Of a stretch of 64,000 nucleotides of DNA, positions 21,986 to 48,510 are shown one piece after another. The position numbers and the translations under genes were made by a program. Under the pieces are notes generated by a model that saw only the letters and a program-made list of their open reading frames with translations, ran no database searches and had not been told where the DNA came from. The stretch's first letter is position 1. Every line of letters begins with the position of its first letter. This stretch comes from Candidatus Omnitrophota bacterium (GTDB lineage: Bacteria; Omnitrophota; Omnitrophia; Omnitrophales; Aquincolibacteriaceae), in contig JAUYMS010000017.1 of the NCBI GenBank assembly GCA_030698625.1, forward strand, positions 12,962 to 76,961, read 5' to 3'.

Positions 21986-23980
21986 ATGTCTAAAAATACG
22001 TCCATTCTTTATCCCTGGATAAAGTTAATTGCCACAGTGACCGTGTGTCTGTTTACGCTCAACACAGTTGCTTGGTCCGCACCCACAGTCCCACAGGCCA
22101 ATATCACGCTTAGCGCACCGTTCAAGTCTCCCGAAATCAAGGACCTGTCGTTACTCGAACGGTTTACGATTCCGCCTCATCTCGGCAGTATCGAAGCGAT
22201 CCATATTCCGCAAGACATCAGCGAGCGCATGGCTTCGCCGACAATCATTCACATTCAAGACGCCCACACCAGCCTCGAAGCCCAGATCAAGATGAAGGAA
22301 TTGATTCACTACCTCCACGAAAAGCACAATTTTGATCTTATCCTGGTGGAAGGAGGCCAGGGTGCGCTAGACGCAGAACGACTCGATTTCTTTGACAACC
22401 CGGCATTAAACCAAAAGGTCGCAACCGATCTCGCCCAGAAAGGGGAAATCGGCGGCGCGGAACTCTATCTTCTAGAGAACCGTGAACAGGGAGCTGAGGT
22501 CGTCGGTGTTGAAGATGACCGGCTGTACTGGGAAAACCTGGCCGCGTTTCGGCGCGTGCTAGCGGGACGCGATAAGTCAGATGATTTTCTCGACAATCTC
22601 AAAACGAGTTTAGGCTCTTTGAGCTCTCTGTACTTCAGCCCCGAGCTGCGCGATTTTACAAGGGATTGGCTGCTCATCCAAGATTCAACCGAAAAGACGA
22701 TTCAACGTTTAGGCGTTTTGAAGAAAGCCGCCCTCGGCCACCTACAGGTCGATCTCGACAATGCCGCCGAACAGAAATCATGGCCGTATTTGGTGCGCTT
22801 TTTTAAAGTGAGAGAGCTTGAGCGCGCGCTGGATTTTAAGCAGGCCGGTATGGAAAAAGGGCATATCGTAGAATGGCTAGCAACGCAGAAACTCGATAGC
22901 TATTGGGCCGAGGGCCTTCAATTGCTCTTTGATGAGGGCAATCAAAACCCGACAGACCCCAACGATGTCCGCAAGAATCCGCGGCCTTTCTTGGAGCGCT
23001 TTTACCAGGCGGTAAAACCGCTCGGTTTTAACTTTGACAAGTACGAAAACTTTGGGCGATACCTCGCTCTTGTAACCCTTGAGCGTGAGATTGATGCCTC
23101 TGCATTCTTTCGGGAAATCCAAAACCTGACAAAGAAAATTACCGTGAGTCTCGCGCACAGCGACGAAGCCGGTCGCCTGGTTGAGTTGCTAGAAGACTAT
23201 CAGCTATGTAAGAAACTGTTTGGCCTGGAACTTACGCGCTCAGAGTTTTCGGCGATCCAGAAATCCCGGGATAAATACCTCCCCCGCGCCATGGCGGACC
23301 GCGCCCTCGCATTTGATAATGGCAGGACAAAGCTGACGTTTAATTCCCTCTCAGACCTCGACGCGCTTTTCCGGTTGGTACTCCGGTTTTACGAAGGGAC
23401 GATGCAGCGCGATATGGCGATGATCGAAAACGCCATGAGCGTCATGAAAAGCAAGAAGTCGAACAAGGCCATACTCGTGACCGGCGGATTTCACAGCGAA
23501 GGGCTTCGCGGACTCTTTGAAGAAAAGGGATTCGCTTACGCGCAAGTGGCTCCGAGAATCTCAGAACTCAATTCGACCGTGAACTATCACGACGTGATGC
23601 AGGGGAAAATCGATGACGTCCTCCTGCAGAACTCACAATTAAAGAGCGCGTTGTATCTAATAGCGCGTAGTAACGTGCGCCCGGAGCGGGCGATTCGAAT
23701 TCTTCGCGCGGCCGGCTTTCGGCCACAGGACCTACTTAACATCCCCGCTGAAAACATCCTCTCCGATCCGAGAACAAGAGCCCTGCCGAATGGAGCGCAA
23801 CGCGACTTAGCGCTTCATTTTCTTAGACTTCAAGTCGCGCTTTATCAGGAACTCAAACAGGCCGAATCCGTAGCCGCGGTGCTCAGTGGACGCACTCAGC
23901 GCACCGCGGACGGATTCGGTTCCGCAGAACCCAGATTTGCCCGTTCCGTAACAGGTGTGGTCACACAGTGGGTGCGCTCA
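21986..23980 (+). other. Shared N-terminal module (copy 2)
   Basis: Hydrophobic leader MSKNTSILYPWIKLIATVTVCLFTLNTVAWSAPT. Conserved blocks IIHIQDAHT (about 22243-22270), GGAELYLL, WPYLVRFFKV, and VTGGFHSEGL (about 23470-23510). Confidence 0.6.
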
Positions 23981-26900
23981 CGCTCGGAACTACGAGCGTC
24001 GTTGGTTGCGACAGAGATGATGCTCTCCGATATTCTGCCTGCGGGTGAGGTCATCGACCGCGTCATTATCGTTGCGGACAATAGCGGCACTCTTACCGAA
24101 CACCGCAAAAAACCCCTGGAGGGAGAGATGCTCAATGCGCTGCGTGCATTTCTGGGCGAGGCAGGCAATGCGCTGCTAGTTAATTCCGGCGATCCGTTCG
24201 CGATGATCACGACCGTGTCTCAGGAGCCTCTTCTTACCTCACTCGACGCGGAATCGGCCTCCCGCATGCGCCTAATTACCGATGGGGGGAAGACAAAACT
24301 CTCAGTAGGCGCGGGCGGTACCATCGAAAACAAAGTAACGGACCCCGATTGGAGCCGCGACGTACAGATCGCGTACACTCGTGCGCTGATTGAAAGTTTT
24401 TATGATGCGGTTAAGAAAAGACACGGACCGCTCAAAGACATGATCGGTGACATAGCGGACAGTACACTGGAGGATTTCAGGGCAGAGTTGCTTGGAAAAC
24501 TTCGGGATGAGGACGAGCTGGGCCGTTGGGGTATACCGTCCAGCGGGGAGCAGGTTTACGAATTCTCCATTGTTACCGATGCCTTACGTGAAAAGATCGG
24601 CGACGTATTTGTTTATGAAGCCGGCTCCAAGGTAACACTCGAGATGGAAAGCGCCCGAGACGCTTATTCTCTGGCGCTCATCCAGGATATTGAAGCGGGT
24701 TTTAGGGCTAGGCACGTCACCGGTGATGGGAGCTTGTACGTTGCGTCGGGAGATTGGTTCGTTGACATTACAGCGACGACGAAGGCTCTAGCCGTTAAGA
24801 AGACATTGGAAGACATCTTCTCAGAAATAGGGCCGGAAGAAAATGTGGTGATATTTATCATAGGCGACGGCGGCAACGATCTCGATACGCTGAATCTGGA
24901 CCTCTCAGGCCGAGCGCACACGGCAGTCATCCCTGTTTTTCTACAGCATGATGAAATTTACGGCGAAGCCTTGCCGGCGCATGCATGGGTCTCGCGGGAG
25001 ACGAAAATGGATGGCGGTCTTGAGGTGGTCCGTTATGCCTTAGGCCTTGTCGGTAAGAAGGTATCCGAGACAGCCGCATTGCCGCTGCTGAAATGGCAGC
25101 GCTCGGAACCGCGCGCTGATGAAGCCACAGAGGCGATTGATCTAAAAGATAAAACCGTATTGCTGCTTCCGGGAGGCGGCTCCCTTGTTGAGAAGATGGG
25201 CAAAGTCCTCTACGAGGAAGACGAGACTTACCGCAAGGTCATGGACGATGCCGCCAAGATCCTGGGGTATAACCTGGCCGAAAAGATTTTTACGCTTTCC
25301 GAAAAAGAGCTCGAGAACCCGATCTATGATGAACCCGCCATTGTATTGACGCTGTATGCGCTTTATGCGTCGGTTGAAGCAGCACTCGGTTATCCGCCAG
25401 AGGAAGGCGCCATTTACGGTCTCTCACGCGGTGCGATTACGGCCGCGATGATTGCCGGCTCACTTTCATTTGAAGATGGGGTGCGTCTTGCACAGCGGTA
25501 CGGCGAGGCTTTGAGCAAGACGCCTGCGGGTGCCATGATTCAGGTCATGGGGTTGCCCGGTGAAACCGTCGAAGGCATTGCCGCGGATCTCGACCTTGAT
25601 ATCGGTGTAGATCTTGGGGAAACACCGGCCATGGGGCACGTCCTGACGATCTCCGGACCGGCTGAGGTCATTAAGGAGGCGGCCCGCCGCGTTGAAGCAG
25701 CGAAAACGGTTGAACACCCGCATGTTCAGGTTGTCCAACTCGCCAATGGGGGTGTGGCCAGTCACAGCCGTGTCATTCAAGAGGCTGTGGATGATATCGA
25801 AAACTTCATTAAGACGCTCGAGGTGCGGAAGCCCTATGTGCCGCTCGTCAGCAATATTGACGGCAGTTTCCTTACGACTGCCGCGCAAGTTGAAAACGAG
25901 CTCTCCCAACACCTGGCTAACCGTATCCGCTTTCCGGCAGTACAAGAAACACTCAAAGCCGCCGGTGCCAACCGGTTTATGGAACTCGGGACCCGCCGCA
26001 AGGGTGTGCTGTCACGATTCCTCTATAAGACTGACCCGCGGCCGGAATACGTGGACGCACCGGCCGCAGGCGATGCCACCAACTGGGAACGCTTCGTCGC
26101 GAAATTCAAGACACCGGCGATGCCCGAAAGGCTTGTCACAAAGCTGCGCAGCGTCAACCAAGAAGGTGCGGACAATCTCAAAGTATCAGATGAAAACGAG
26201 GAATACCGCCGGCACTGGATCCGTACGAACCAGCTGATACGTCAGGGGCTTGAGGAAGCAGGCGACGGCGGCACGGTCTTATTGTTCGGGCTTGGGAATG
26301 GTAATGAATTCGCAGAACGTTACAAGCGAGAAGATCCGGACTTTTTAACATTGGCGGATCTTGCGCGCCGCGTCGACCGTATTGTTGTCTTTGAGGCCGA
26401 TCCCGAATCCGCACAGCGAACCATTGCCTCGATTGGGGATCCCGCCCTCGAAGCCAAATTCACACTTGAACTCGGAGACGTTACGCGCTTAGGGGCCGCG
26501 TTTGCGCGAAAGGCCGGAAAAGTCATTCAGACATCCTCGCGCGATGATGTGATTGAAGACCTGACCGAGATGATTTCTCAGATTAGGATTCCGGTTATGG
26601 ACTACAGCGAGTACGAAGCCTCGCTGGTGCTTGCACCGACTGTCCTCTCACAGATATTTCTCCATACGCGCAGGGCTCTCTATGAGATGCTCGACGAACA
26701 ATTCGGTGATTTTGGAGGCGTTAACCTTTCGGGTCCCGAAGACGAAAAGCTGCCGCTCGCTGTTGCCATGTCCATGCTGGAGGGAGACATTCACCTCGCC
26801 TTTCTCCGTTCCCTGCGGAGGGGTGTCACCGACGACGGGCGAGCCGTCATTTCGTGGACGAAAGACCGGGTTCAGGGTGTTACGTCAGAAGACGGAGTGT

Positions 26901-29900
26901 TTACGGTGAAACATACGGAATATTTGCTATTCAGTAATTACATTAGAGATGTCATGGAGCTCTTCGAAGGGGAATTCGCTGCTTGGCACTGGATGCTCAT
27001 TTCGGATTTTCAGTCGCCCACCGGCATGAGTGTTGGGTTTAATGTGCAGGGGGCTTTGCTTTCCCCGAAAGCCGTTGATATGAACTCGCTGTCGAAACCC
27101 GGCGCGTTTTTGCCTTTGGTGAGCACTAAGAAAACAAAACAGGCGATGGCGGCGGGAAAGAAACGCGATCCGAACGAACCGCTTCCGCACGGTGCCGAAT
27201 GGCGCTTTGAGCGGGTGCGTGAGCCGGCTGACAGCCGAAAATATCTGCGGTTGGCCGAAAAGGCGCAGCGCTTGAGCCGTGTTTATTCGGCCGATGCGTC
27301 TTCGACCGTCGCTTTCTACTTCATTTCGCGAAGCCTCCGGGAGTTTGAAGAAAGAGGCGAACAGGCCTGGGAGATTTTCGACCACACCGGCCGCACCGTC
27401 GGCTTGAGTGTTCTTTCAAAGCCGAGATCCGATACATTGTCTGCCGAGCTTCGGAGTCTCATCGCCGCAGGCGGGGAGCTTGCCGAGCGGGAAACCGCGA
27501 TTATTCCCGAGTATCAGCGCCGCGGCATCGGGGCAGGTATCGGTATTGAGACCTTGCGCTACCTGCAGGACCATGCCGATGAAGGCATACGTTTTCTTCA
27601 TTCCAGGATTGATTACGGCCATGAGTCGTCTTTTCGCTTTCTGCACCGGGCGGCCCAGGAACTGGGACTGCCGATCCGCCTTGTGCCGGGCCCCGCAGGG
27701 GAAACCGGGGCACATCATCTGCTGGTTGATTTGTATCCGACAGAAGACCGCAGCGATGAAATTAAGACGATCATTAAGGAGTTTGCGGGACTGTCAGCGA
27801 ACATCGACAAGGCGTGGGAACAGTTGCAGAAACTGGAACAGACCGAACGGTCCGAATTAAGAGCCACGCCTATACATGACGAGCGCCTCGGGGAGCGCGC
27901 CTACATCAAAGAGTCCCAGACGGCCCGCTTGCAGGGCAGTGACCGGTTTCCGGCCGGCTATCGATCCCTTTTTATCGGCAACGGTTCCGATCCCTATCCT
28001 GTCGAAGAGGCCCGCTTGGGTGCGGTGAGTGACGCTATCGATACCCGCTATGGCGACGAAATAATGGCAGGCACCGAGAAAGTTTTCCGCGAGGCAGCCG
28101 ATCGCTTTAGTATTCCGATGGTAGGGGAGCAACCTGTTCTCAGATTCCTCCGCGGCGACATCAACGACCGGACAGAGAGTGAGACTCAGGCGCAAACGAT
28201 CGCCAGGCTTCTCGGCCTTCCGTCGGCAGAAGATGCCCTTGACCATATTTCGGTTCTGGATTTCTTTATCGATCCGGGCGATGCCGGTCCCACCGGGTCC
28301 TTTGATTTTCTGCTTCGCAACGCGATGCAGGCACAATTGCTACAGCGCGGAGTTCAGGGAATTGTGGAAGACAGTGTGCGCGCGGAGCCTGCTATCAACC
28401 TTTTCAAGGCACTCCTGGAACTCGTAAAGCCCGGAGGGACGATCGAGTTCAGCGAGGAGCCCCTCGTCCCGGAAGGCCGGTTGCCGGTCACGGCCTTCAG
28501 CGTCTTCGAGACCCTGCTGAAAGACTCTGGTTATCAGGAAGGCCGCGATTACCGGCGCGAGATCGTCGGCACAACCAACATCGAACACAATGGCATCGCC
28601 CTATATACCATTCTCAATAAACCCGAGCTCGGTCCGGCACAGATTGACGTGCAATTCGCCGGGCGAATCGAGAGATGGGGAGCTGAGAGAGGGTCCGATG
28701 AAGATATGGCATCGGCTATCCACGACTTTTTCCTTGGCGGCAGCGAAGACACCCTGGCAGTGGCCGAGCAATTGTTTGGCGAGGCGATACGAATGCGCGA
28801 TATCGAAAAAATCGAAGCCCGTCACTTTGCCCATGACCCCGTTCTCCATATGTTCGATGCGAAGATGACTCTCAAAGACGGAAACAGCCGGGATTTCTCT
28901 CTGATCCTGCCGGTCGAAGTGGGGGATGAGGAGTCCGATTTTGTTCGCGGTTTCAGGAATGTAGAAGAAATGCAGCGGCGCGGTTTTACAAACACAATCA
29001 AGCTGCTGCGGCTAGGCCGCGGGCAGATCGCTGCGCGGCACCCGCAGATGAATGGTAAGCCGCTGGCGATTGCTGCCGTGGAAGATCTCGGGGGCTTTGC
29101 AATCCTCCAGCCCCGCTACTATGCGCGGGCAGATTTTAGCGTACGGGGCCTGGACAATAGTAACCGGGTTCTCAGAGAAGTGAAAGTATTCGAAGAACCC
29201 CTTCCGGTGCAACACGCCATTCTGAGTGAAGTGGGAAAGTATATGACCCTCCTGACCGGGCATGAACCCGATTCGGATGAGATCAGCTATGTGTCGGTCA
29301 ATTTCGGGCTCCGTGATGTGCTCACCCGAATTTATCGCGGCCACGACTTTGATATCAAGACGCTCTTAGTACGCGGCATCGCGGATAATCGTAAGCCTGA
29401 GAATTTCCTGGATTATTTGATGGGCGGTAGGTTCGTCTTGCTCGATGGCCGCGCGCTCTTTCCTGTGGAGCCCCTGCTAAGGGGTATCGCCATGGGGCTT
29501 ATCGAGAAATTCGGCAAACAGGATGGCAGCCGCTACTTCAAAGACTGGATGCAGCGCTACAGAGAAGTTCTTAGCAACCGCGCCGAAGCATTGCGTGCCT
29601 GGCAGTCCAAGCTATACGATGGGGGAGCGAACCCCAGAGATTTTCTGGACGCGGATCTGGTGAGCTGGCTCGAAATGCAAATAGAGGATGCCAAAAAGGA
29701 CGAAGACCTAGCGGTTTTCTATCCGTGGGGCACGGAAAAATTCGAAACCTATCTTGAAACCGGCAAACGTGATTCCGACGGAACGATCGTTAAATTTCCG
29801 GCTGCGATCCTCAAGGTCACAGAGCGCGTCCTCGCGGCCGTGGAGGCCCTGCCGAAAACGCAAAGTGAAATACAAGCATTTGCCGCGGAAAGACCCGAGA

Positions 29901-32900
29901 TTCGCTTTGCCGGACCGGTCGATCAGTTGCCCGAACGATCCGAGCTTAGAGCCGACGATCCGTGGCATGAGACGCAGCTTGCTTATCTTATGCAGCAATC
30001 CGATGAAGCCTACCGCGACGCAAAAATTGGGGAGCTTGTTGAGGCCGGCCAGTTCACTCGGAGTACTCGTGATGCGACCGTTCCCGCAGCCTCCCGTGTG
30101 TTGGAGCAGCAAAAAAGCGAGACAGCGCCTATTGGTTACTTCAGTAGCCTGCTTCGCCTTGCCGGCGGCGACGAGGTCGGTGCATCATTTGAAGCGCGCT
30201 TCGGAACCGAAGGTTCTGTGACCGTCGATGAGGTCTTTCATTACTTCTTGGAACAGATCGATACAATCACCCATGAAGACGGCACCTCAATCGTTAACGA
30301 CTCTCTGCTCGACACCAACGAGAGCAAGAAGAGATTGTTGAACGAAATCTATCCGGTAATCCTGTTCAGTTTTGCCGGAATTACGCGGAAGCATGTCACA
30401 ATTCCGTATATTTTTCACCTGCTCGGTGTTGCCCTGCTGACGGTTCAGACCCTTGCGGAGAGCAACATTACCCACACCCAGCCCCGGAACGAAAGAGAAG
30501 CGTGGGTCATGGATATGCTCATCGCCTCGCTTTACCATGACCTCATTGAAGATACTGCCTTCTCCCCGTTCAACCTCGAGAAGTTCACATCGCGGAAGGC
30601 GCGGTTGCGCATTGAAGCGCTGACGAAACTGGATGTCCTCGAGAATATAGAGGGTATTCCGGCAGAACCCCTGGCGAAGCTCAAGAAACGAATTGAGAAG
30701 ATCAATTATACGGAGCTTAAAAAAGGCCCTAAAACGCTGGTGATCAAATTCGCCGACCGCATGTACAACCTGGCCGACGCGTTTGTGACCGCAAACTTTC
30801 TTCGCGGTACTGACGAGGCTGTGTTCGCGACGGCGGAGGCATTTCGAATCAAGTACGTGACCCAAACTACGGGAGAAGACGGTTTCCTTGCAAATCTTGT
30901 TTATGGGGAGAATCTCCCGACCGGCGAACCGTGGTTCATCGATGTGGCCAATTTTTTTGTCGCGCGTATTAATGAAATTACCGGAGAGAGTAACCCGCAA
31001 TTGGCGCGGGAATCGGAGGCGGCACAGGCGGGGGAATGGATCGATCTGCTGGATCGTGATTATGAGCGTGCCCGTCAGACGCTCATGAGTATGGAAGCCG
31101 ATGAGCGGGACAGAGTTCGTCTCGACGCGATCGAAGCGCTCAGGAATGAAATTGCCAGGATGCATCGAGGCACGATACACCTGGAGCCCGTTACGGCATT
31201 GACTCAGGACCTGAAGGGCGACTATACGGTTCGGCGCCTTACTTCATTGAGGGAAGACCTCGTTGTGAAGGACTTTGACCATGCGGAAACCCCGGGCTAT
31301 GAAGGAGATTATCTTCGGGAATCCCGGCATATCAGTCAACTCGTAGCGCGCCGCGGTACGGAAGAATATCTGATGCGGCTCAAGCTCTTCTGGCTTCAAA
31401 CGCTCCCCGAAGATTTTTCGATCGTGCATGTGGCCAGCGGCGTCAATTATATACCCTCTTACCTCTTTCCCTACACCGCAGTGACTTTGATGACGGTCAA
31501 TGCCAGTGCAGCGAACTTTATCATGTCTTCTGTTACGGGCATTGATGACAGTGCCTGGAACCTCAATCTGATAAAGAATCTCGATTACAGCGACGGCATA
31601 GACGCTCTTGATATTCCGAAGTTGAGGGGTGCGATCGACTCAAGCCCGCAGGCGAAACCGTCGCAGCGCGTTTTCTTTTTTAGCAACTTCGAACCCTGGG
31701 CCCGAAACTCCTGGACCTTTTTCGAAAATCAACGCACCCGTTACCGGACGAAGGAACCGCCGGCCGACCTTGCGGAAACCTGGGCGCGTGAAGCCGACGA
31801 AGGCCTCATTCGAGAGGGCGATACCCTGATTTTTTCAGGCGACGGTGACAGCGCTATCATGGAGGCACTTATCGCGCGAGGGTTTGTGGAGTTGCGCTAC
31901 CCTGCGGGCGTCCAAGAGAGCCTATTGGCAGCCGACGCCGGAGATTACAGCGTCAACTATATTGACGACCAGTATATCGAATGGGCCCGGACATTTCGCG
32001 TTTTGCAGAAACCTTACAGCGATGCGGCTGCAACTGAGACCGATCCTATCTCGAGTGCGCAATGGGTGAAATCCGATCGCTCCGAGCTGCGGGAAGATAC
32101 AGCGGTAGATACGGCAGTCAAAGTGGGGGCGGTGGTCGTTGGAACCGCCGCGGCGGGCACTGCGGGTTACTACCTATTAAGGAAGAAAGGCGACGGCTCA
32201 GGTAAGCCGGAGCCGATTCGGGTTGAGGCGCGCCAGGTCGGCCGGCGCGAATTCATGCAGACAAGTACTGCGGTCATGGCCTCGATGTCGCCGGCGGCGA
32301 AATTGTTTCTCGGCCAAGCGGCGGCTGAAACCGCGGTCGAAACAGTCGCCGGCACATTTAACGCGCAGACGGAAATGATGTTTGCCATTGCGCGGGCGAT
32401 CAACGGGATCGCGCGGGTCGAAGACGGAAGCTCCTCCGGCGCTCCGCTCGTAACTGATATCCTGCCTTGGCATCTGGAAAATAATCCCGACCTTATGCCC
32501 GACCAGGTCGAGGCCTTGAGAGAGAAAATTCTCGTCGCGCAAGATCACGTCAGCAAAAGTGTTTCGAAGCAGATATTCGCGCGGGCGTCCCGAATCCAAT
32601 TACCCGAGGGTATTTCGAATAGTACCGAATTGGATGAGTTCGTCAGGAAGTTTTTGTTGCCGCTCACCCGCACGTTGGGTAATGAGGTCGGCACGATCGT
32701 CAAAGGCCTCAAGACACGCGCCTTTGCGCAGATGGCGCTCCGGAAAGCAGCAGAGACGGCAAAACCGGCAGGGCTCAAAGATTATAATGCTGAGAAAGCA
32801 GCGAAAGCCGAACAGGGACAGCAGTACGCTGACTACGCCAAAGACGAGGCTGCGCGGATTTTCCGTATCGAGACGGCGCTCGAAGATAAGCGCCGGCGAT

Positions 32901-35900
32901 TTTCGGCCGAGTATGACCGCCTGCAGGCAGAACTCAAAATCGTACGTGACGAAGCAGCAGAGCCGCTAATCGGTAGTGACCTCGGCGGTGATCAGGATAA
33001 GCACTATGCCCGCTCTCTTTTGCCGATCCTGGCGGCCGAGGCCAAGGCACTGGCCGCAAAACTCGGGGAATTGAGAACTCTTATCGGGATCAGCCGCAAG
33101 CGCCAGAAGGCAGAAATGTGGTACGACACGGAGTTGGGCAATCTTGCGAATTCGTTCGGCCGGAAGATCGATACTTACCTACAAGGCTTCCGCAGAAGCG
33201 GCGAGGCCGATCCCAAACCGGCACTTCAAATCATTACCGATTTCCTGCGTGAGATCGGACGCGAGGACTTGTTATCCACCCTCGAACTTTACCAATACGA
33301 CAATCCGCAAATCAAGGACAATAAAATGTGGGCCGTGATTGTCGACGGCCATCAGACGTTGGCGTTTCTTCAACTCAGCGGTACCTACCACGTATCCCTA
33401 TTGAATGACCCCGTTTACTACGGCAAGACGACCGAAAAGGGTTTTGAGGCGCGCGGTAACGGAGCCCAGCGGGGTGCGCGGCTCTTCCTGCGGTATTTTG
33501 CACCGCGCTCTCTGTATCCTGAAGAGACGCAAGGCGACGTTTCCGTTGTGAAATTGCCAGACGGCCGTACGATCGAGATCCTCCGCGATCCCCAGCTGCT
33601 GGGCCGCTACCTCAGTCTGACCGTCAAAGACGCAGACGGCAACGAAATCAGCCATAGCGTGGAAACGCTCCATACGGTTGTTGAGCTCGGAGCGCCGGAG
33701 CCAAGGACAAAGTATGAATTTACACGTCGGGACGGCAAGTATGTCCTTCTTCCCGCACGTTCCGAGTTGCGCAGCCAGGGCGCGTTTACGTTTTATGAAA
33801 AAGACGAGCCGATCCTGCATGTGCAGATTAACGTGAGCCCGGGTGGCGACTCAGCCGATTTTAATCTGGCGGCGATCGAATCCGCGCTCTTAGGTCTCAT
33901 GAAGACCAAGAGGGCACTGATCAAGTCGGCGGACCCTAAACCGGAACTTCTGTGGCAGATCAGCAAGGCGGGCCCGAACCTCGCGATCGGTGACGAGAAT
34001 AGAACGATTTACCCCATTGCGGTTGAAGGCGCCCGGCCTTCCCTGCTGCTTAAGATTAAAGATCCCGGAAACGCGAGTAACATTATTGCCACGGCTTATA
34101 TCCATGAAGTCTCGGGCGAAATCGTGAGCGATTCCTTTGCGAAAGAACGCGAAATTGCCCGGGAGGCGGTTGCCAGACTAGACCGCAGGACTAAAAAAAT
34201 AGAACGGGTCCTAATTGTCGATGACGAAAGCAACCGGCGCGCCGTGGTTCGCCGCGTGCTTCGCGATGCCAATAAATCAAGCGAAGAGACCGAATACGGT
34301 GAAGCCGAAAACGGCCGCGATGCCGTGAACGTATTTCGTCATAGCACTTATGACCTGGTGATTACGGATATGGATATGCCGAATGGTAACGGCGACGAGT
34401 TCATCCGGGAGATCCGCCGCACGGCCGGCCCCAAGGTGCCGGTCATTCTCTTGAGCGGCTCACAGTGGGCGCATGAGCAGGTCCGCAAAAAACTCGGCCC
34501 CAACGCGATCAGCCTGGCCAAAAAAGGCTCGGGCTACAACGCCAACCTTGTCCTGCAGTTCGTGATCGAAGAACTTCAAAATCAGGTGCGGCGCTCCGAG
34601 CTGCGCCTCAGTATCGGGGAGATCGAGCAATTTCTCAAAACGAAGCAAGAGGGGCTGATCGCCGGTTATGCGCAACATTTTGTCGACGATATCGCGAGCC
34701 TTTCAGACGAGGATATTCAACAGGGGATCCGGGACTTCTCTTTGGATGAGGAAGTCTATGGCCGGCCGGCGCTTGATGCGGAGCAGTTAGAAGACCGCAC
34801 TCCCGAAGGCCGGTACGCCATTGTGACGGAAGCCCTTTTCCGTTATCTCAGGGCACATCAGGGGCGCGTGGCAAACTATGCGATTGAGTTGGCGCGAATG
34901 GTTTCTGACAAATTCCCCGATGAATTTAATTACAACGATGAAGAAGCCCGGAAGTTATTCAGGGTCTCTGTCCTGGCGCACGATATCGGCAAGGTCAAAG
35001 TCAAACCCTCAATCCTTCTCTTTAGTAAGGGGCTATTGAAAGGCGACGATTTGGAAACGATGCGCTCTCATGCCGCGCTCGGGGCGGATATCGCCCGTGA
35101 TTACCTGAATGAGATAGGCGTGGATCCGGAGGTTCGTGATTCGGTTGTGAATGTCGTCAATTTCCATCACGAGGATTGGAACGGAGAGGGTTATCCGCAG
35201 CGCCTCAAGGGAAAGGACATTCCCTTTTTGGCACGGCTCGTCCGTATTGTCGACACCATGGAAGCGATGCGCCCTCTCATTCCGCGCTTCCACTCCTATA
35301 AGAGTTCCACGGTTGCTCAAGTGATGGGGCTGCTTGAAACAGGCAAAGAAAAGTATTTTGACCCAAGCTTGGTCGACATTCTCTTAGACGGCATCCGCGA
35401 GGATAAGGCCACGGCGCGGCGATTCGCGGGGTTGCTTCTCACGGATTTAGAGACGCTCGATGACGCGCTGGGCATCGAACGCTCCGAACTGCGGAGTTCA
35501 ACAGAAACCGCGGATGATGATTTTGAACAGCAGCTGGCGGACGTTGCCGAAATCGTTCAAAACTTAGTCCGAGGCACGGGAGAAGCCTCAAAGTCAGCCG
35601 TGTCTATCGTCATGAGCCTTGCCGAGAGCGGCTATTTCCATCCGCACCAATCGTGGCTCCAACGTAGACGTCCGTTACAGGGTAGTCAATTGGAAGCGCA
35701 GCGCCGCCGTATAAAGCTCTCCTTTACCGATGCGCCTTACCCGGGCCATACCCCGGAAAATGCTTTTTTTAGCCTGACGATCACGGGAATCCCGAACAAT
35801 GAAAGGCTGCGCAACCTCGCCGCGGCCCTTAAGGAAGCTCATATTGTTTCTGCGACCTCCTCGTTGGATCTGCTGGTCATTTTAGAGGCCCTTGTAAAAC

Positions 35901-38900
35901 AATTGCCCTCAAGTAATTTTGACGCAGAAAAGCTGCAGCAATTGGCGGCTCGCGTACAGGCGGTGAACGAGGAGTCGGGTACGTTGGGATTGTCTCAGGT
36001 ATTGCTTGCATTACGCGAGCTCACGAAGAACCACTTTTTCCATCGCAGGGGATTTAACGATGTCATGCGGGCGATAGACGTTTTGGAGAGTATTGCTGCG
36101 GACGAGCGGCGGGAGCAATTATTCAGTCTATTCTATTATCTCAACAAGGAAGAATTCTTTCTTGAAAGGGGATGGTCGCTCGCCCGAATTTCCCGAGGAC
36201 TCGTGCTGATTGTGTCAAAAATCCCTGTTGTGAATTTTATCCTTGGCCTTTTCCTGCAGTGGTTGTGGATGAGAGCAGAGTGGCTCGTCAGTTTCTTTCT
36301 TGCAGAGAAGCAAAGTGTGTCGAGACTCGAGTGGGCCGGTCTTGCGGCATCGTCGGAAGACCTGCAAGAAATTACTTCTGCGTGGGCGAAACTCTCGCTT
36401 TCTGTAGAAAACAGGGGAATATCGCGCAGATTCTATCTGAATGCCCATTTGTTAAGGCAATTGGGCCCGAAAGGGGCTCGCGCGGCTCTCCCGTCGTGGA
36501 TGAGCAGGTTGGAGGTTTGGGAGAAAGATCACGCAAGGGAATTTTTATCTGAGGCGTTTCTGAGCGGCCCTGTAGATCAACCGGATGCCGCATCCCCGCA
36601 GCCTTCAAGTAGTCGTGCCTTGAGCACAATGATTAACACCAGGCTGTCCGATAGTTTTCTGAACCTGGGTCCCGGGATGCCTGGCGATAGAAAAATCGGT
36701 GTCTATTACGGCTATCTGCTTAACCATATTCTCGCCCAATCGATCGTAGATACGGATAAGGACCCTGCGCACTTAAAGCAGATGGCTTTTGAACTTGCCG
36801 CGCTTCTCATCGCGGATAAGAAGGTCATGCCATGGGTTGTCATTGCGGTGCTGGATGAATTGGAGCTGTTTGAGGCTAAGCAGGAGATTGTAACGGTTGT
36901 CGGCACCGCGGCGGCGATTGCGGCCCATCATGGTGCCGATTTCAAAGAGGAGCTGTATTCAAAATTTCTGACGCACAGCATTCCGAGAATTGCGTTGGAA
37001 TCGCCCGAATTACCCATGGAGTTCAGCGCGCTTCAGCGGGCGGTGGCGGGAATCCTGGGTTTTTATCAGGATGAGCGTTACGCGTTGGATCTGATCAAAG
37101 TGACGGGCCGCTATCTCAGTGATGAAGGCCGTCCCGATGTGATCGCAGATCGCATAGCGGAATTGGACGCAGTGGAGTCGATCCATTTCGAGACGCCGCG
37201 GATTCGAAAACAGGTCATTGACAAACTTGCACGTGTGCACACCCGGGCCCAGGGCAGTCGCTTTTTTGTCAGCGATGAAGTGCAGCAGCGGCGGCAAGAA
37301 GTCCTCGAAAACCTGAGGGCTGAGAAACAGCCCGCGCGTATTGTGACTGCCGGGCTGCTGGCAGAGTTTGAAGAATATATAAGCACGGTTGCCTCTGAGG
37401 ATGAGATCGGTCTTGTGAAGTCGCTAAATCGATACGGGCACTTGCTGCATAGGAACAGGAGAGGGGCCGTACCATTTGGGGCCTTGGGTGTGCTAGGGAC
37501 GCCGGGGTCGCGTTGGCACGACGAGTTCCCGGCCGTGAAGCTGACAAATACGAGTCTCGACGAAGTCGATATCTATGAAGGTTACGATGGCCCGAACTGG
37601 CTTATGGGCGAGGGTTTCAGCAGTCGAGCGGCGTACCGCGCGGTGCAGGAAAAAATCCGTGATGCGGTCAACGCCGGCCGTATTGACTATGCGAATGCTG
37701 CTGCCGTCATGAACGCTCAAGCAAAGCGAATCGAACGCTCCGAACTGCGGCTTCCCGGTGAAAAAGTAGCGGTCATCGGCGGGGCCGGATTTGTGGGTGC
37801 CACCGAGGCGTCCATGCTTTCGGCTCGCTTTGGCCATGATGTCACGGGCGTCGACATCAAAGACGAAAGCGTGAAGTCGCTCAATGGCGGCACATTGGTC
37901 AATTATGCCCCCGGCCTCGAAGAAATTCTCCAGGAGGGATTGAACACGAATCGCCTGCGGTTCACAACACATTTGGAACAGGCGATCAAGGATCGCGAGT
38001 TTATTTTTCTTGCCTTGCCCACACCCTATAAGGAAGACACCGGGGAGGCGGATATAAGTTTTCTCGAGAACGCCGTGCGGGACATTGTCCGCCTTGCGGA
38101 ACCCGGAAAGAGGAAAATCATCATCGGTAAAAGTACGGCCCCTCCTGCCACGGCGAAACGTCTGAAGGAAATTATTGCCGAAGAACTCCCCGAGGGAGCA
38201 GAAGTGCACCTGGCATGGATCCCCGAATTCCTGCGCGAGGGCATGGAAGTCGAAGACGCGTTGGGCGGATCGGGCCGTATGGTGATCGGTGCCGACAGCC
38301 CGGAGATCGCGGAGCGCGTCGCGTCTCTTTATGCGCCGGAGAGAATCAATCCTAAGTACCCGACTCGAAACCCGAATCGACCGGGCGAGCCCATCCCCAT
38401 TGTCAAAATGGGGATTGAAAGCGCCATGCTGGTCAAATACGCCGCGAACGGTTTCCGCGCCACCAAGATTTCCTTTATTAATCTTATCAGTTGGTTTACC
38501 GAAGAGCTCGGTTTCAAAATTGGCGACATCTCGGCAGCGATTGGCGAAGATCCGCGAATTTTGAAACCCTTTTTACAGGCCGGGTGCGGTTGGGGCGGAT
38601 CGTGCTTCCCGAAGGATTCTTTATCCTTTCTGCGCCAAGTCGTAGATGCCGGAATCCCTTACGGATTGATGCTCGATACCTTTGCCGTGAACGAAATCCA
38701 GTGGAGGACCTTTGTCCACCGGATCGATGAGCAGTTAAGCGGCGTAAAAGACAAGACCGTTGTCATCTTGGGAGGTTCCTTCAAACCGGGAACGAGTGAC
38801 GTAAGGGAAGCCCGCTCGATCCTGATTATCAAAGAGTTGTTGAGTCGGGGTGCCCGCGTGCGGGTCTTTGATCCCGTTGCCATTCCCTTTTTGAAGAAGG

Positions 38901-41900
38901 AGTTTCCGGGCGAGGCGGGCATCGAATATTTTGAGGTTTCCGAGGACGGCCTCGAAGCAGCTGATTACGAAAGCATGAAGGGTGCGGATGCCGTCGCGCT
39001 GGTGACCGCATGGGAGACTTTTAAATCCTTGGATTTTGAACACCTCAGAGATGTGACTTTTTCCGGCAGAGCCCTTCCGACGATCTTTGACGGCTTCAAC
39101 GGTTGGAATCCCGAAACCCTGGGGGGTCTCGGTTTTAGTTATACGGGGATCAGCCATAATAAATTTGATAGTGACCTGGTCGGAGAAGCAACCGTCGATA
39201 ACCAGGAGGAGTTTGTGGAGCTTACCAAACAACTCTTTCTCGCCCTTCGAGTCTCGTACACCAATATGCTTGCAGAGATGGCCGAAGCCGCGGGTGCCGA
39301 TATTCGCGAGGTCCTGACGGGAATCGGCTTTGATCCGGTTATCGGTCCCGAGCATCTGAAGCCCGGTCTCGGCTTTGGCGGTTTACACCTTTCCCGTGCC
39401 TTGGAGCGTTTTGAGAGCATGGCGGTGGCACTCAATTTCCGCGCATTCTATTCCGCAGAATACGTCACACGCAGACATCAGATTCAGGACCATTTTGGTT
39501 TTGGAAAGAACGGAATGGGGGATAGCCCGGACCGCATTCCTTTTGTATCCGCGATTCGTGAGGAAAATGAAAGGTCCATCAGGCTACATGTGGATATGAT
39601 ACGAGAGGCAGCGGGGGGTGACTTGACGGGAAAAAAAATCGCGGTTTTGGGGTTGGCATATAAGCCCGGTACCAACGTCATTGACAACGCGCCTTCTGTG
39701 AAATTGATAAATACGCTGCTTGAAGCAGGCGCAATTATTCAGGCGACCGATGAGGATGAGCAGGTCATAGCGAAGATCAAACAGGAGTTCCGTCAGGTTG
39801 AGTCCGGGCGACTTCAGTTTTTCGCGGATGCCCGCGATGCAGTACAAAAGAGTCAGGTTCAGGTTTTGGTGACCGAATGGCCAAGATATCGGGATTGGAA
39901 TGATTTTGTCTTCGAAGCAGCTCAAGTTAATTTTGTCGACGGCCGTCATTTTTACGATCCCGCGGAGTTCAAGAACAGCGGTATTAATTACTATGCCATA
40001 GGTGTTCCCCGCGGCGACCGTGATCGCTCCGAGTTACGTTCAGAAGAAGGTCTGGCGTCCACGGTGTTTAAGATGCTCGAGTCATTCGACAAACCTTTTA
40101 AAGACAACCGGAAGGCCATTACGGATTATATCCGGCCGCTCGGTCGGGAACAGAAGATCGAAGCTTTCAATCTGCTTGTCGATGTTCTCGTGGATGCGAC
40201 GGCCAAGGGGCGGGCGCGCGAACTGGCGGGCCGTGTCCTTCCTAAAGTGATCGAAGATCTCGGCCGGGACGACAAGGTCGACAATGTGGCCGTCATTCTC
40301 CCCGCGCTGCGCAAGGTGATTGCAACGATTGATCAAATCGTGAAAGGCATGCGGCCGAAGACGCGCGAAGAAGGGATTTTCGTTTGGTATGCGATGGACT
40401 TTGTCGAAACCGTTGAAGACTATGCGAGCGGCAAGAATATTCAGCATGTCGTAGACAAGGCGCTGGGGAACAAGCTCAAGAACATCGAAGGCGAACTCGG
40501 CACCATTTTCTGGATCCGTGAAGTAGACAGCCCCTGGTGGAGATTCGAGGGCCAGACCGAAGACCTTGGTTATCTGCATATTTCCGCGCGTCATCATGCC
40601 AAAGAGCTCAAGCGTGTCGCAAAGCGGATCAAACGGCCGGCTGAAGATACAGAAGAACGTGAGACGCCGGAGGAGTTGTGGGCGCGTGCGGTTCGGGCCT
40701 ATGAAGGCATGGGTCTTCTGCGGCAGCAGGCCCTGATCCTGTGGCAGCTGGAAAGCCGCGACATGACCGCAGAGAATCCGCATCAATACGAGATCGAAGA
40801 CAAGATTCATGAGATCGCACGGCTTGCCGCGGAATCTCGGCCCGTCTTTGAAGGCATCACTGCAGATCTAAGAAAAACTTACACAAAGCCCTGGCCGAAG
40901 CGCGACCCAAAGAAAAAGACTCTGTTCCCCGGACTCTCAGCTCTTCCTTCTGAGCAGGTAGCACTCGAAGCGGATGAGCGCATGATCGAGAAGCCGAATG
41001 GCATGAAGCAGGAGCTTGCGAATCAGATCTTTGGGCTCTTCGCCAAAATGAAACGGCATTCGAAAGAGATTGCGCGTTGGGGCGCGATTACTACGGGCAT
41101 CATCAATAAGATTCAGGAAGGCTCCAGCGAAGATCAGGGCGTTGCGATCAAGGAGCTCAGAGAAATCATTCGCGAGCGGGCCTATCCGGAACTCGAAGAA
41201 CTTTCACGGCTTTCGGCGGAGATCATGATGACAATCGGATGGCTCGGGACGACCACTGAAGAAGATCACGCCGCCGAGATTAATGCAGCGCAGGACCTGG
41301 GCCGACAGATTCGAGAAGCCCTGCGATCGGATCCGGATGACGATGGAAAGGACACCGAAGTAAGAGAATATCTCAACTCCGAAGAGTTCCGGGAGATGGA
41401 GCCCAATGACCGCCTGGGAGCCGTTATCGATCAACTCAGGAACAATGGCCTCAATCTCGACGGTGAAAACATGAACGACATCTACAATAAACTGCCCCTG
41501 CAGCTTGGCGACTATGTCAGCCGGGACGACATTACGACCTATGACATGGAAGCTTCCATATATAGAAAGATCCGCGAAGCTGTTGCCGACCCGCAGATTC
41601 AGCGGTTCCTTCTCGCGGAAGATTTCATGAAGCTGGATCCGCTGGAAAGGCTTCCCGCGCTCATTGCCGAAATTCGCCAGGCTCGGCTGCCGCTTGACGC
41701 CGAAAACGTCATGCAGATCCGGCAGGCCCTGCCGCGCGTGCTGGCAGACCATACCGAGGTCACAAGACCTATTAGTGACGACGGCGAACTGGGTGAAGAA
41801 TACGAAAAACGGACTCAGATCTTCAAGCAGGATATTCCGGCCCTCGACCTGCCTTTCAATGTCTTTGTGCAGATGCGGGATCTGGTCGAGATGAGTGAAG

Positions 41901-44900
41901 TTCAATCGTATCTGGATTCTCCGGAATTCCGTGCTGTTCCCGCCGAACGGAAGCTCGCCACATTTGTCGCAAAACTTCAGGACGGAGAGACGGGCATGAA
42001 TTTCATTCTGGAAACCGATGACTTGGAACTTATCCACCGTGCTCTTCCCGAAGATCTCAGTAACAAGACGAAAAAGACGGAGATGCCGTTACCGGTCGCC
42101 GAAGACGCCGAGGCGGAAACCGCCGGCTATCTCGGCTGGGTGCGGCCGTTTCTCGATTTCTTACGCAAATTGTTCCGGGCGGCGGTCGAGTACTTTCCGA
42201 ACCGGATTCAGTTGGGCCGCGACCGCAAGGCCGTGGAACAGGCAACGCGTGTTGCTTTTGAAACACGGGCCATTCACGAAGAGTCCCGCAAATACTATCT
42301 GGATATATTCGAAGAAATCGAGAAGCTTCGCAAAGCGACCGGTCGCAACACCTTTCCGATCGCCGCAGAAGACACTTATGGGCTTAGCCCCGAACCCGCA
42401 TCACCGCCTGCAGTTGACCCTTCCGGTACAGGCCGCTCCGAGCTGCGCAGTGATTTTGAGGTTGCGAGGGCGGCTACGCAAGATCAATTGAAGGAATTGT
42501 TGGGGCAGCACTTTGCGATCGAGGTCCTTGACGATGCGCTGACCGATCGCTTGTCGCCCGACATCTTTACTTTCTGGTATGCCCTTATTAAAGCGGCGCA
42601 CCTCGACAAATCCGCGCTCAGGAGAGTGATTTTTACCCTGTGGGACCGGGCCCATGAAAAGACCCTGGTGTATGAGGGGAAGGAGATTGAGTTAACGGAA
42701 ACCGACAAGCTTCTTTACCATAGCCAAGGCGGTTATCATAAGGATACGAGTTCCGTCATCGTAAATACCTCGGGTACGATGCCCCTTGCGATGATTGTCG
42801 CGCACGAGATCGGCGAAGCGATTGTTAAGGTTTACGGATTCCGCTATTACCTACCCGAATCGCAGCATGAATACCTGGTTCATTATGTCCTCAAAAGTCT
42901 TCTCAAAGAGGTGGATCCGAAATATATCCAGGAATATGACGATGCAACGTCGGGCTCTTTAGGTAAGGTCGGATACGACGTGAGCAGGAGTAGAGTCAGC
43001 ATGATCGAATCCGTAGGGAATGCGATTCTGAAAAACGCGAAATTTGCGAAGGCGAAAAAGAGAGCAGGCTTTTTGCCCGAGCTCGAACGATTCGAAGAGG
43101 ATGTCCCGTGGAGTGCGTTACGCGATAAGGATCCCGCCGCGAGATCCAAAACATATTTCAAGGAGGGCGACCGGGTCGTCATTGACGTAAGGGGACGGGA
43201 GGGGCCGTATATCGGGAGTGGTGTTCTTGCCGTGAAAGGAGTAATAAGCAGTGTGAACCGTGACGGACAGAGTGTCTACGTCAACCTCGTCACCGACAGC
43301 GGTGAAATTCAAAACTCGGTATTCGGAACAAATATTGGCGACGCCAAATTGTGGAAATGGGATGAGGGAAAGGAACCGTTTGTGCCCGAGGGCGGAGAAT
43401 TACGGAAGGAGGAGTATACTTCCGTCTTAGAGCTTCCCGCCGCCATCGCGAAGGCACTCTGGGATGATGCCAGTTTTCTCACCGTCGGTGAGCTGAGAAA
43501 TGCCCTTGGGATGGGCTTGCTGCATCTTATCCCGGGCATTGATTATGAAGCGATTCGCACAATCAGAGAGAAACTTGCGAGTGTCCGCTCCGAGCTGAGG
43601 GCTGAATACGACGCCTACATTGTTTCCGGTGCGGAGAGGGCCTTAAGGCCGGCCGGTGAAGTCAGTCGCAAGGGCGCGAACCTGTTGACGATGGCGTCAC
43701 TCGGTCTTCCGGTTCCTGATTTTGTTATTGTGACGACGGACCTCGCCAAAGACCGGGGCGGCAATATCGACTTTGATGAATTGGCTGCGGCATTGACCGC
43801 CCAATTCGAAGGAAAGCTTGGCGAGGATTACCGCCTGCGTGTCAGACCCGCGGCGATTGAGACTATGCCAGGGGTTCTGGATACTTATGCCGGTATTGCA
43901 TCGGGCACAGATCTCGCGGAAGCGCTTCGTCGGGCCTACGCACAGTGGGAGGACCCTTTTACCTCGGCTTATCGAGACGAATTTGGCATTCCGCATGATT
44001 CGGGAATCGCGATTACTGTGCAGGTCGAAATCAATGTGAGCGGAACTCCGAAAAGTGCTGCAGGTGCTTTTCATACGCGTGACCCGAAAAGCGGAGAAGA
44101 CCGGCTGACGGGAACTTATTATATCGGAGCGCCCGGGGAAAAGACGATGTCGGGGTCTGAAGACCCGGCCTTCCGGACCGTCGAAGACCATTTGCAGACT
44201 GACTTTCCGGATCTTCATACGAAACTTGTCGAAATCAAAGGCATTCTCGAAAAGCATTACGGGTACCCGCAGATCGTGGAGTTCATTATTGAAGACGGCA
44301 AGATTCATCTTCTGCAGACCGATCATATGGACCTGGATGAGGCCGGCATCGGCGAACGCGTCATGGACGACATGTTCCGCCAGAAGCTTACGAGCATCAA
44401 GCGTATCACGGCTGCCCGCAAGGCCCGTGAAGCGCTCAAGGTAGCGATTAGGGCGGTCCGCGAAGACGCCAAAAAGGAAACAGTGCCGGGCTTCGCGCTT
44501 TCGCGCGGAGCTGCTGTGGGAGTCCTGGCTTTCTCACTTGAGGCGGCCGAGCGTTACCGGGCGGACGGCAAGCAGGTAATCTTGCTTGTGCCGGAGCGTA
44601 ACCGCGCAGTGTGGACGGCGATGATACAAAAGAAACTTGACGGTCTTCTGCTCCTTTTCGGTAATTACAATATGCATGAAGCCCGCATTGCACGGCGCAT
44701 CGCCCTGCCCGCGGTTTCCAGTCTGGAAGACCGGGAATTCGACGGCGCATCCTTTCGGGTTGGCAATATCTCGTTAAAGGAAGGCGACCGCATTGCCATT
44801 GACGGAAACACGGGCAAAATCGTGCTGCCCCAGGGCCGGCATGTGCTCGAGACCGTTGCGGAGACTGCGGTTGAGACGGCCTCGGAAGTGGATCCCGAAG

Positions 44901-48319: not shown

Positions 48320-48510
48320 GCGATAGCAATTTATAACAGGGCCCAGTTTATTATCACTTGCTGTCATCCCCCCTATTCTATTAGGCCAGGGCATAATTCC
48401 ACTAAGTCGTTGGGTTGAAAACGGTTAGTTCATGTGCGAACCTTTCTCGATCTTCACATCAAACCAAAATTCCGTCTTACAACGTCAAAGGACTGGGGGG
48501 TTTTTCGACG
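48320..48510 (+). promoter_or_regulatory. Intergenic region between giant genes 2 and 3 (no terminator hairpin seen; SD-like AAAGGACTGGGGGG at 48487-48500)
   Basis: Moderately AT-rich 190 bp. It shares an AAGGA(A)CTGGG element with the region upstream of gene 2. Confidence 0.3.

Follow-up and report, generated by a model that had tools for sequence, protein, structure and literature searches.

We analysed a stretch of 64,000 nucleotides (nt) of DNA, hereafter the window, from a Candidatus Omnitrophota bacterium (assembly GCA_030698625.1, contig JAUYMS010000017.1, positions 12,962 to 76,961). It carries three giant open reading frames (ORFs), named G1, G2, and G3, which are divided into modules by copies of the pentapeptide RSELR and which each open with a related leader module. 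Within G2, the copy at 34592 stands between two signaling domains: a receiver (REC) domain that ends module 6 (M6) and an HD-GYP phosphodiesterase domain in module 7 (M7) (Table 1). Judged from sequence comparison, RSELR is this genome's invariant form of R-[S/A]-E-x-R, the inter-module delimiter of Omnitrophota giant ORFs that carry the conserved leader. The reading we lean towards, with modest confidence, is that a polyprotein cut at R[SA]ExR would release an X-REC protein and a stand-alone HD-GYP phosphodiesterase from this part of G2; the cleavage itself is something we infer.

Table 1. Giant ORFs, modules, domains, and RSELR sites, with positions counted from the first nucleotide of the window (aa, amino acids).
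Feature	Position (nt)	Strand	Remarks
RSELR delimiter closing M5, before M6	33758..33772	+	
M6	33773-34606	+	278 aa; ends in canonical REC
M6 N-terminal part, ~144 aa	33773..34204	+	no recognizable family; low-confidence model
REC domain	34205..34591	+	DD, phospho-acceptor D, K; alpha5 helix abuts RSELR
RSELR delimiter between REC and HD-GYP	34592..34606	+	next residue Leu
M7	34607-35494	+	296 aa; canonical HD-GYP
M7 N-terminal helical extension	34607..34855	+	contains ~50-aa insertion relative to canonical REC-HD-GYP linkers
HD-GYP phosphodiesterase domain	34856..35416	+	HDIGK ... HHEDWNGEGYP
RSELR delimiter closing M7	35480..35494	+	
G2 giant ORF	21986..48319	+	8,777 aa; uninterrupted; 14 modules, 13 RSELR dividers; M6/M7 inside
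G2 leader	21986..23665	+	N-terminal hydrophobic helix, then ~500-aa domain
G1 giant ORF	445..13536	+	4,363 aa counted from TTG start; leader 445-2079; 13 RSELR
G1 RSELR sites	2203, 3745, 4417, 5293, 5998, 6871, 7912, 8431, 9073, 9772, 10399, 12007, 12535	+	
G3 giant ORF	48406..63999	+	at least 5,198 aa, continues past window end; leader ~48529-50163
G3 RSELR sites (n=5)	50254, 51958, 55969, 58984, 61228	+	

A REC domain and an HD-GYP domain on either side of an RSELR site

The Pfam model Response_reg matched aa 146-232 of M6 (E-value (E) 1.5e-17; nt 34208-34468), and with its alpha5 helix the domain extends to the RSELR at 34592. In M7, the Pfam models HD (E 3.5e-16, aa 84-221) and HD_5 (E 5.4e-14, aa 111-255) cover nt 34856-35371. 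Both modules matched NF053512, the NCBIfam model for REC-type cyclic di-GMP (c-di-GMP) phosphodiesterases, with M6 taking model positions 1-78 and M7 positions 171-361. Alignment with REC-HD-GYP proteins (ten in all) showed that the REC keeps the acidic pair DD (D15/D16), the phospho-acceptor D64 in 'VITDMDMP', and K116 (alignment numbering), and that M7 keeps the HDIGK and HHEDWNGEGYP motifs, with Asn replacing the usual Asp before G-x-GYP. Among solved structures, the closest to M7 was the HD-GYP domain of PA4781 (4r8z; sequence E 2.2e-16; Foldseek E 1e-10, template modeling (TM) score 0.77), and the M6 REC matched CheY structures with TM ~0.8 in Foldseek. No match to the ~144 aa ahead of the REC was found in Pfam, NCBIfam, or an exhaustive HMMER search; the exhaustive search with M5-M7 returned ordinary REC/HD-GYP proteins only, so that M5 and the N-terminal part of M6 were unmatched. 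HisKA and HATPase_c had no match in any module or neighboring gene within the window.

The database relatives of M6 and M7 taken together are ordinary REC-HD-GYP regulators of ~350-400 aa, which are 24-30% identical from the REC through the end of the HD-GYP domain (69-71% of M6+M7). For several of them (P0101, P0111, P0119, P0164, P0177), a single HMMER alignment stretch crosses the RSELR. The site at 34592 occupies the position of the REC-to-HD-GYP linker of RpfG-type proteins, directly after REC alpha5, and the ~50-aa insertion absent from canonical proteins comes after it (alignment columns ~150-215). Canonical HD-GYP proteins stop ~20 residues short of the RSELR at 35480. An earlier sequence-only reading of this DNA had described a receiver and an HD-GYP domain in adjacent modules, split by RSELR. 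Pfam and the alignment bear out its domain calls and coordinates, and the motif does sit where RpfG-type proteins join the two domains, collinear with single-chain regulators and with both halves matching one regulator model. Of the homologue matches to M6+M7, 14 of 39 carried PF13487 (HD-GYP) without PF00072 (REC). An AlphaFold2 (AF2) model of M6+M7, built with 53 sequences, gave a predicted local distance difference test score (pLDDT) above 90 for the REC and of 85-98 for the HD-GYP core.

RSELR and the modules it delimits in the window

RSELR occurs 31 times in the 18,357 residues of the three giant ORFs (13 in G1, 13 in G2, 5 in G3), compared with 0.047 copies expected from composition. 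It is present only in the coding frame and is absent from the other four reading frames of the window. Among the 155 motif codons, 81 deviate from the consensus codon and every one of these differences is synonymous, including AGT/TCN exchanges for Ser, TTR/CTN for Leu, and AGR/CGN for Arg. Selection therefore acts on the peptide and not on the DNA or RNA. Near-miss variants are almost absent from the window, and conservation in the flanks is limited to the residues that follow the motif, small ones (S, A, T) first and acidic ones next. No enrichment of Met was seen behind the motif; such an enrichment would have hinted at internal initiation or at one-time start codons.

Two further observations concern the motif. 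Codon choice within it is biased: of the 31 copies, 20 have CGC for the first Arg and none has AGR (background 20%), 30 have TCN for the Ser (60% in the background), and the last Arg uses all six codons. This bias may reflect how the motif spread. The other concerns the residues that a cut directly after RSELR would expose. The HD-GYP module (34607) and the UDP-glucose dehydrogenase module (37751) would begin with Leu and a G1 module (4432) with Tyr, and most of the remaining modules would begin with S, A, or T. Leu and Tyr are destabilizing N-terminal residues under the bacterial N-degron rule.

The Leu that follows it, shared by 2 of the 31 sites, is the sole peculiarity of the site between M6 and M7 (M6|M7). 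In proline/glycine content and helix propensity its surroundings do not stand out from those of the other sites. We considered whether this context was unusually helical or poor in Pro and Gly and rejected the idea, as several other sites are alike.

The modules resemble whole proteins. Those of G2 span 278-1,289 aa, and Pfam matches were found for M2 (acyltransferase), M6 (REC), M7 (HD/HD_5), M9 (UDP-glucose dehydrogenase), and M12 (PPDK_N together with PEP-utilizer domains). Across the giant ORFs, acyltransferase, REC, HD-GYP, UDP-glucose dehydrogenase, PPDK-like, HAD, and AAA_5 units fall in separate modules, and the Pfam scan of these ORFs found no recognized domain interrupted by an RSELR site. 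The UDP-glucose dehydrogenase of M9 begins at the fifth residue past RSELR, with the Pfam N-domain model entered at position 2, and all three of its domains lie within the single module. A HAD hydrolase starts ~20 residues past a G1 site. Module 13 of G1 (12007-12110) starts 'A-MSRRGFLERVMKTAVLASL', a twin-arginine (Tat)-type signal; the signal, 'MSRRGFLERV' / 'MSRRGFLERVMKTAVLASLSLPSLP', begins 2 residues past the RSELR at 12007, and module 13 would therefore need a free cytoplasmic N-terminus. This is the one clear case of a Tat-like motif shortly after a site.

Several other modules and genes of the window deserve mention. Module 4 of G2 (29951-32092), two modules upstream of the REC/HD-GYP pair, has a weak RelA/SpoT-family match (TIGR00691, E 1.1e-6, aa 188-275), which suggests a cluster of nucleotide second-messenger modules in G2. 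In G3, the RSELR at 55969 is flanked by a VWA match in module 3 (55354-55794; E 0.0025, below cut-off) and an AAA_5 match in module 4 (56227-56643), the latter strong (dynein-related, MoxR-like, E 5e-39). MoxR ATPases and VWA proteins are usually encoded by separate neighboring genes. Modules 9 and 10 of G1 (8446-9786) are adjacent paralogues of ~214-233 aa with 33% identity, each with two hydrophobic segments and a similar C-terminal 'RQALD.GV....RSELR'; their likeness suggests that a module was duplicated in tandem along with its delimiter. The interval between G1 and G2 holds ordinary cellular genes, namely an M24 peptidase, a split transketolase, a gamma-glutamyltransferase, a NUDIX protein, and a Bax-inhibitor homologue, whose encoded proteins are identical to MDP3919628-35 of a Candidatus Omnitrophota metagenome-assembled genome (MAG). 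The M24 Xaa-Pro peptidase and the gamma-glutamyltransferase were considered as processing enzymes and set aside, as they belong to exopeptidase and transferase families, respectively.

The leader and the motif in related loci

G1, G2, and G3 open with paralogous modules that are 30-33% identical over ~550 aa, each with an N-terminal hydrophobic helix. Scanning the GTDB species genomes with a leader profile identified 44 loci, nearly all titled Candidatus Omnitrophota or Omnitrophica; the remainder were titled 'uncultured bacterium', with one Planctomycetales and one Endomicrobiales. R[SA]ExR occurs 124 times in the leader-bearing ORFs of these loci, against 5 occurrences expected, in the forms RSELR, RSEVR, RSEMR, RSEAR, RAEVR, RAETR, and RAERR. 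The first copy usually lies at aa ~590-770, right behind the leader. Beyond the leader ORFs the motif is rare and essentially confined to upstream giant ORFs that start outside the locus. A word-indexed homologue search of the protein database returned one relative of the leader, P0047, which has KSEVR at the equivalent position. Three leader ORFs of 546-601 aa (L027, L030, L034) end in a stop codon with no downstream in-frame modules, and the leader can therefore exist as a free-standing protein. A BLAST comparison of the window modules with the leader loci (10 kb each) found few homologous modules.

At one of these loci, L003 (JACPXL010000034.1), the leader ORF at 9968-13210 ends after 1,081 aa. 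From 13075 onward, overlapping the end of that ORF, another frame stays open for 2,833 aa and contains four R[SA]ExR-type sites. The change of frame is either a frameshift due to assembly error or a programmed one.

Two of the relatives bear directly on the REC and HD-GYP modules. The 2,472-aa leader ORF of L040 (JAZDJU010000049.1) has five Pfam REC stretches (E 1.5e-83). Four of them lie in tandem modules of 141-151 aa (aa 729-1311), each holding exactly one REC that begins ~12 residues past RSEVR and stops ~12 residues short of the next RSEVR or RSEMR. These modules share the frame 'RSEVR-ENR.PLAK.I..IL(I/V)VDDE ... KPF ... (Y/F)WPE.RSEVR', and the tandem has the appearance of a polyprotein made up of CheY-like proteins in a row. 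The fifth REC ends a 600-aa module immediately before RSEIR, a layout as in M6. In L020, one module of ~140 aa consists of a REC alone, and a second REC starts 15 residues past a site. As far as these comparisons reach, REC-terminated and orphan REC modules are normal in this system, and REC-less HD-GYP units are normal generally.

These relatives change how the divided regulator is to be read. The sequence-only reading had taken it as an argument against cleavage at every site, such that either selective or conditional processing or an uncleaved linker would be needed. It was right that a normally one-chain regulator is divided by the motif. The inference against general cleavage is not supported by the comparative data, in which single RECs are bracketed by the motif (L040, L020), or by the unexceptional context of the M6|M7 site. 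Selective or conditional processing may still take place, but it is not required. The conflict was, by the reading's own account, one that orphan domains working in related organisms would remove; the orphan RECs together with the REC-less HD-GYP matches (14 of 39) largely remove it.

Several comparisons indicate what the leader may be. Residues H94, Q100, E122, G157, E159, G174, E176, E377, F468, R475, G500, G501, H503, and P523 are invariant in 40 leaders. The leader motifs are DAH, followed after 28 aa by E, and RD ... GGFH (GG-x-H503), with a ~290-aa helical insertion separating the two halves. No Pfam match above threshold and no NCBIfam match was found for the leaders of G1, G2, and G3. 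When the 40 leaders were scanned against Pfam at a permissive threshold, the family matched by the most members was PF04187 (ChaN, 'Tiki superfamily'; 6 of 40, best E 2.8e-4), all of these matches falling below the gathering score of 27.7 bits. In L031, the match covers profile positions 164-203 of 213, the C-terminal part, and lies near the C-terminal end of the leader. An AF2 model of the G2 leader (mean pLDDT 67.6, core 75-89) has six beta-strands flanked by helices, and Foldseek placed Bcr135 (3b55, 2rad), EreC (6xcq, 6xcs), and HopBA1 (5t09) at ranks 2, 3, 5, 6, and 7, with matches that were not significant (E 0.15-0.9, TM 0.15-0.32). An hhalign comparison with PrgY of pCF10, which is annotated as TraB/GumN family, gave two collinear local matches (E 0.074 and 0.025, probability below 2%) that pair H94 with H21, E122 with E45, R475 with R191, and H503 with H214 (leader and PrgY, respectively).

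Proteins of the TIKI superfamily share a 2His/2Glu catalytic motif (H85/E113 in Bcr135; E3900/H3902/E3930/H4030 in RRSP); the structures named for the superfamily include Bcr135 (3B55) and HopBA1 (5T09), and the Ere family is also placed there (PMC6254334). The spacing of 28 from H94 to E122 in the leader equals the His-to-Glu spacing of Bcr135 and of RRSP (H3902/E3930). Our best guess, drawn from individually weak but mutually consistent lines in sequence and model, is that the leader is probably a TIKI/TraB-like hydrolase. TIKI and RRSP are sequence-specific endopeptidases (PMC6254334), and the leader is therefore a reasonable candidate for the processing enzyme.

Readings of the junction and comparison with known systems

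Under the polyprotein reading, the giant precursor would be cut at or next to each delimiter into proteins of ordinary size, by the leader domain or by another dedicated protease. The M6 product would be an 'unknown domain + REC' protein and the M7 product a stand-alone HD-GYP c-di-GMP phosphodiesterase. The pair may descend from, or mimic, an RpfG-type single-chain regulator whose linker now holds the delimiter and the ~50-aa insertion. After processing, the REC could work on the HD-GYP domain in trans or as its non-covalent partner; it could also have another target, or be active only while an intermediate is still uncleaved.

A number of observations weigh against this reading. The structural modeling of the REC-linker-HD-GYP segment that the sequence-only reading had proposed was run with AF2, and it places RSELR 34592 (aa 274-278) within one long continuous helix (aa 265-308, pLDDT 71-80) and in no exposed loop. 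No orthologue of the M6|M7 junction was found in GTDB species genomes or JGI metagenomes. Some modules hold extra unassigned sequence beyond one enzyme, such as the ~310 aa that follow the dehydrogenase in M9. Distant leader ORFs (below ~25% identity; L029, L032, L033, L037-L039, L043, L045), which measure 1,700-3,900 aa and include one of Ca. Omnitrophus magneticus, are without R[SA]ExR, and no substitute junction motif or recurrent short motif was detected in them. For the leader as protease, the sub-threshold ChaN, Foldseek, and hhalign scores given above count on the same side, as does the lack of any match in PDB sequence-profile searches with the leader. Its N-terminus also resembles a Sec signal or an N-in anchor, with which the domain would come to lie outside the cytoplasm. 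This conflicts with the cargo, as REC, HD-GYP, UDP-glucose dehydrogenase, and a Tat-signal module imply processing in the cytoplasm.

Two other readings leave the REC and HD-GYP domains joined for at least part of their life. RSELR could be an uncleaved structural or recognition linker, a hinge or docking site, so that G2 would act as one mega-protein in which REC and HD-GYP stay covalently linked as in an RpfG-type regulator. The modeled alpha5 that continues as one helix through RSELR into M7, like the signaling helices of fused regulators, is in keeping with this idea, as are the collinearity with single-chain regulators and the lack of a significant protease domain in the window by Pfam and NCBIfam. 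However, passive linkers are not typically invariant 5-residue motifs that have unconserved flanks and fall exactly on protein-sized boundaries, and four tandem single-REC modules make little sense in one fused chain. The Tat signal right behind a site needs a free N-terminus, and across the 44 loci the motif is linked to a conserved leader that resembles an enzyme. We consider an uncleaved linker rather unlikely. A little below it in our estimation, and unlikely too, is selective or conditional processing, in which most sites would be cut and M6|M7 only slowly or conditionally, so that a fused intermediate and separated products coexist as in viral polyproteins. The Leu after the M6|M7 site (found at 2 of 31 sites, S, A, or T being the usual residues) would fit such a scheme, as would the predicted helix around the site and the fact that the pair is built like a fused regulator, if not descended from one. 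Yet the context of the site is no outlier in proline/glycine content or helix propensity, and REC-ended modules followed by the motif recur in relatives, so that nothing singles out this junction.

The remaining alternatives do away with a processed peptide motif or with the giant ORFs themselves. That the motif is a nucleic-acid signal (a recombination scar or RNA processing site) or a recoding or peptide-bond-skipping element is very improbable. Its mild codon bias (CGC for the first Arg, TCN for Ser) would suit a nucleic-acid signal, but all 81 codon differences are synonymous, and relatives vary position 4 and S/A as a peptide yet keep R..E.R. The motif also has no conserved upstream nascent-chain context, which 2A-type elements require, and no enrichment of Met behind it. 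We give still less credence to the giant ORFs being artefacts of assembly or annotation (pseudogenes or chimeric contigs, for instance). The protein collection searched did lack the exact 8,777-aa product, as an artefact would lead one to expect. On the other hand, in a separate Logan assembly, of run SRR13727534, the region from the end of G1 through the genes in between to the start of G2 recurs with identical RSELR sites. G2 also runs for 26 kb without a stop codon, 44 related loci lie in other MAGs, and giant ORFs are documented in the phylum.

The polyprotein reading can be extended to a farther-reaching proposal that we regard as improbable. A large share of Omnitrophota enzymes and signaling proteins would be made as giant precursors cut at R-[S/A]-E-x-R by a TIKI-like leader protease. 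At modules ending in a REC, such as M6, phosphorylation of that domain would decide whether the adjoining site is exposed, since alpha5 leads directly into RSELR. A two-component signal would then gate a step that cannot be undone, the freeing of the enzyme that follows, here the M7 phosphodiesterase.

The Omnitrophota are known for giant ORFs (Seymour et al., 2023; PMC10066038), and the motif and leader make it testable how the products of these ORFs mature, as single megaproteins or as cut pieces. For the Archaeovorins, West-Roberts et al. (2023; bioRxiv 10.1101/2023.11.21.568195) suspected cleavage, stated that the cleavage points were unknown, which blocked structure prediction for each product, and implicated C39 and subtilisin domains, both of which are absent from the giant ORFs of the window. 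RSELR, the R[SA]ExR consensus, and the leader predict where cuts would fall, which domain might make them, and how the ORFs could be split for annotation and modeling. If cleavage is true, it would amount to a cellular bacterial polyprotein strategy that spans metabolic enzymes and two-component parts, beyond toxins. The REC|HD-GYP junction would be a natural test case for signaling modules once a covalent regulator is split.

The giant genes already described in this phylum (the 'multi-enzyme metabolic cluster' class and the Archaeovorins) resemble those of the window in that one polypeptide is made up of many Pfam families, REC and HD regulators among them. They differ in that neither a junction motif nor a shared leader was reported there. 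A 2026 preprint on the 'multi-enzyme metabolic cluster' giants with REC and HD regulators mentions neither cleavage nor a motif (bioRxiv 10.64898/2026.06.07.730766). Our literature searches, which took in the Omnitrophota giant-gene papers, did not find the motif, its phylum-wide consensus, or its link to the leader described. In the TIKI/TraB-PrgY/ChaN/erythromycin-esterase superfamily, the likeness lies in the DAH...E and RD...GGFH motifs of the leader, which align with H21/E45 and R191/H214 of PrgY; the ~290-aa helical insertion sets the leader apart, and none of its matches to the superfamily is significant.

M6 and M7 share with RpfG-type regulators (Xanthomonas RpfG, Pseudomonas PA4781) the REC-then-HD-GYP order, the phospho-acceptor, and the HD/HHE..GYP residues. 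Unlike those regulators, they lie inside an 8,777-aa ORF, have RSELR and the ~50-aa insertion between the domains and an extra ~144 aa before the REC, and have no recognizable cognate kinase nearby within the window. MARTX toxins are likewise very large bacterial ORFs of unrelated effector or enzyme units, which in their case are freed by site-specific proteolysis, as we infer here. MARTX cleavage follows the rule Leu-(A/S/G), whereas the giant ORFs have R[SA]ExR as delimiter, a TIKI-like leader at the N-terminus as candidate protease, and a cargo to which housekeeping-type enzymes and two-component parts belong. The MARTX hallmarks (RTX repeats and the C80, inositol-phosphate-activated cysteine protease domain) had no Pfam or NCBIfam match in G1, G2, or G3. 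One MARTX effector, RRSP, is itself a TIKI-family endopeptidase (PMC6254334). From viral polyproteins with 3C/3CL-type proteases, the giant ORFs differ in belonging to a cellular bacterium, in the fold of the candidate protease, in their far larger size, and in a motif that is strictly invariant within the genome. What they have in common with those polyproteins is a short conserved junction motif, a candidate protease encoded in cis, heterogeneous modules, and possible functional intermediates.

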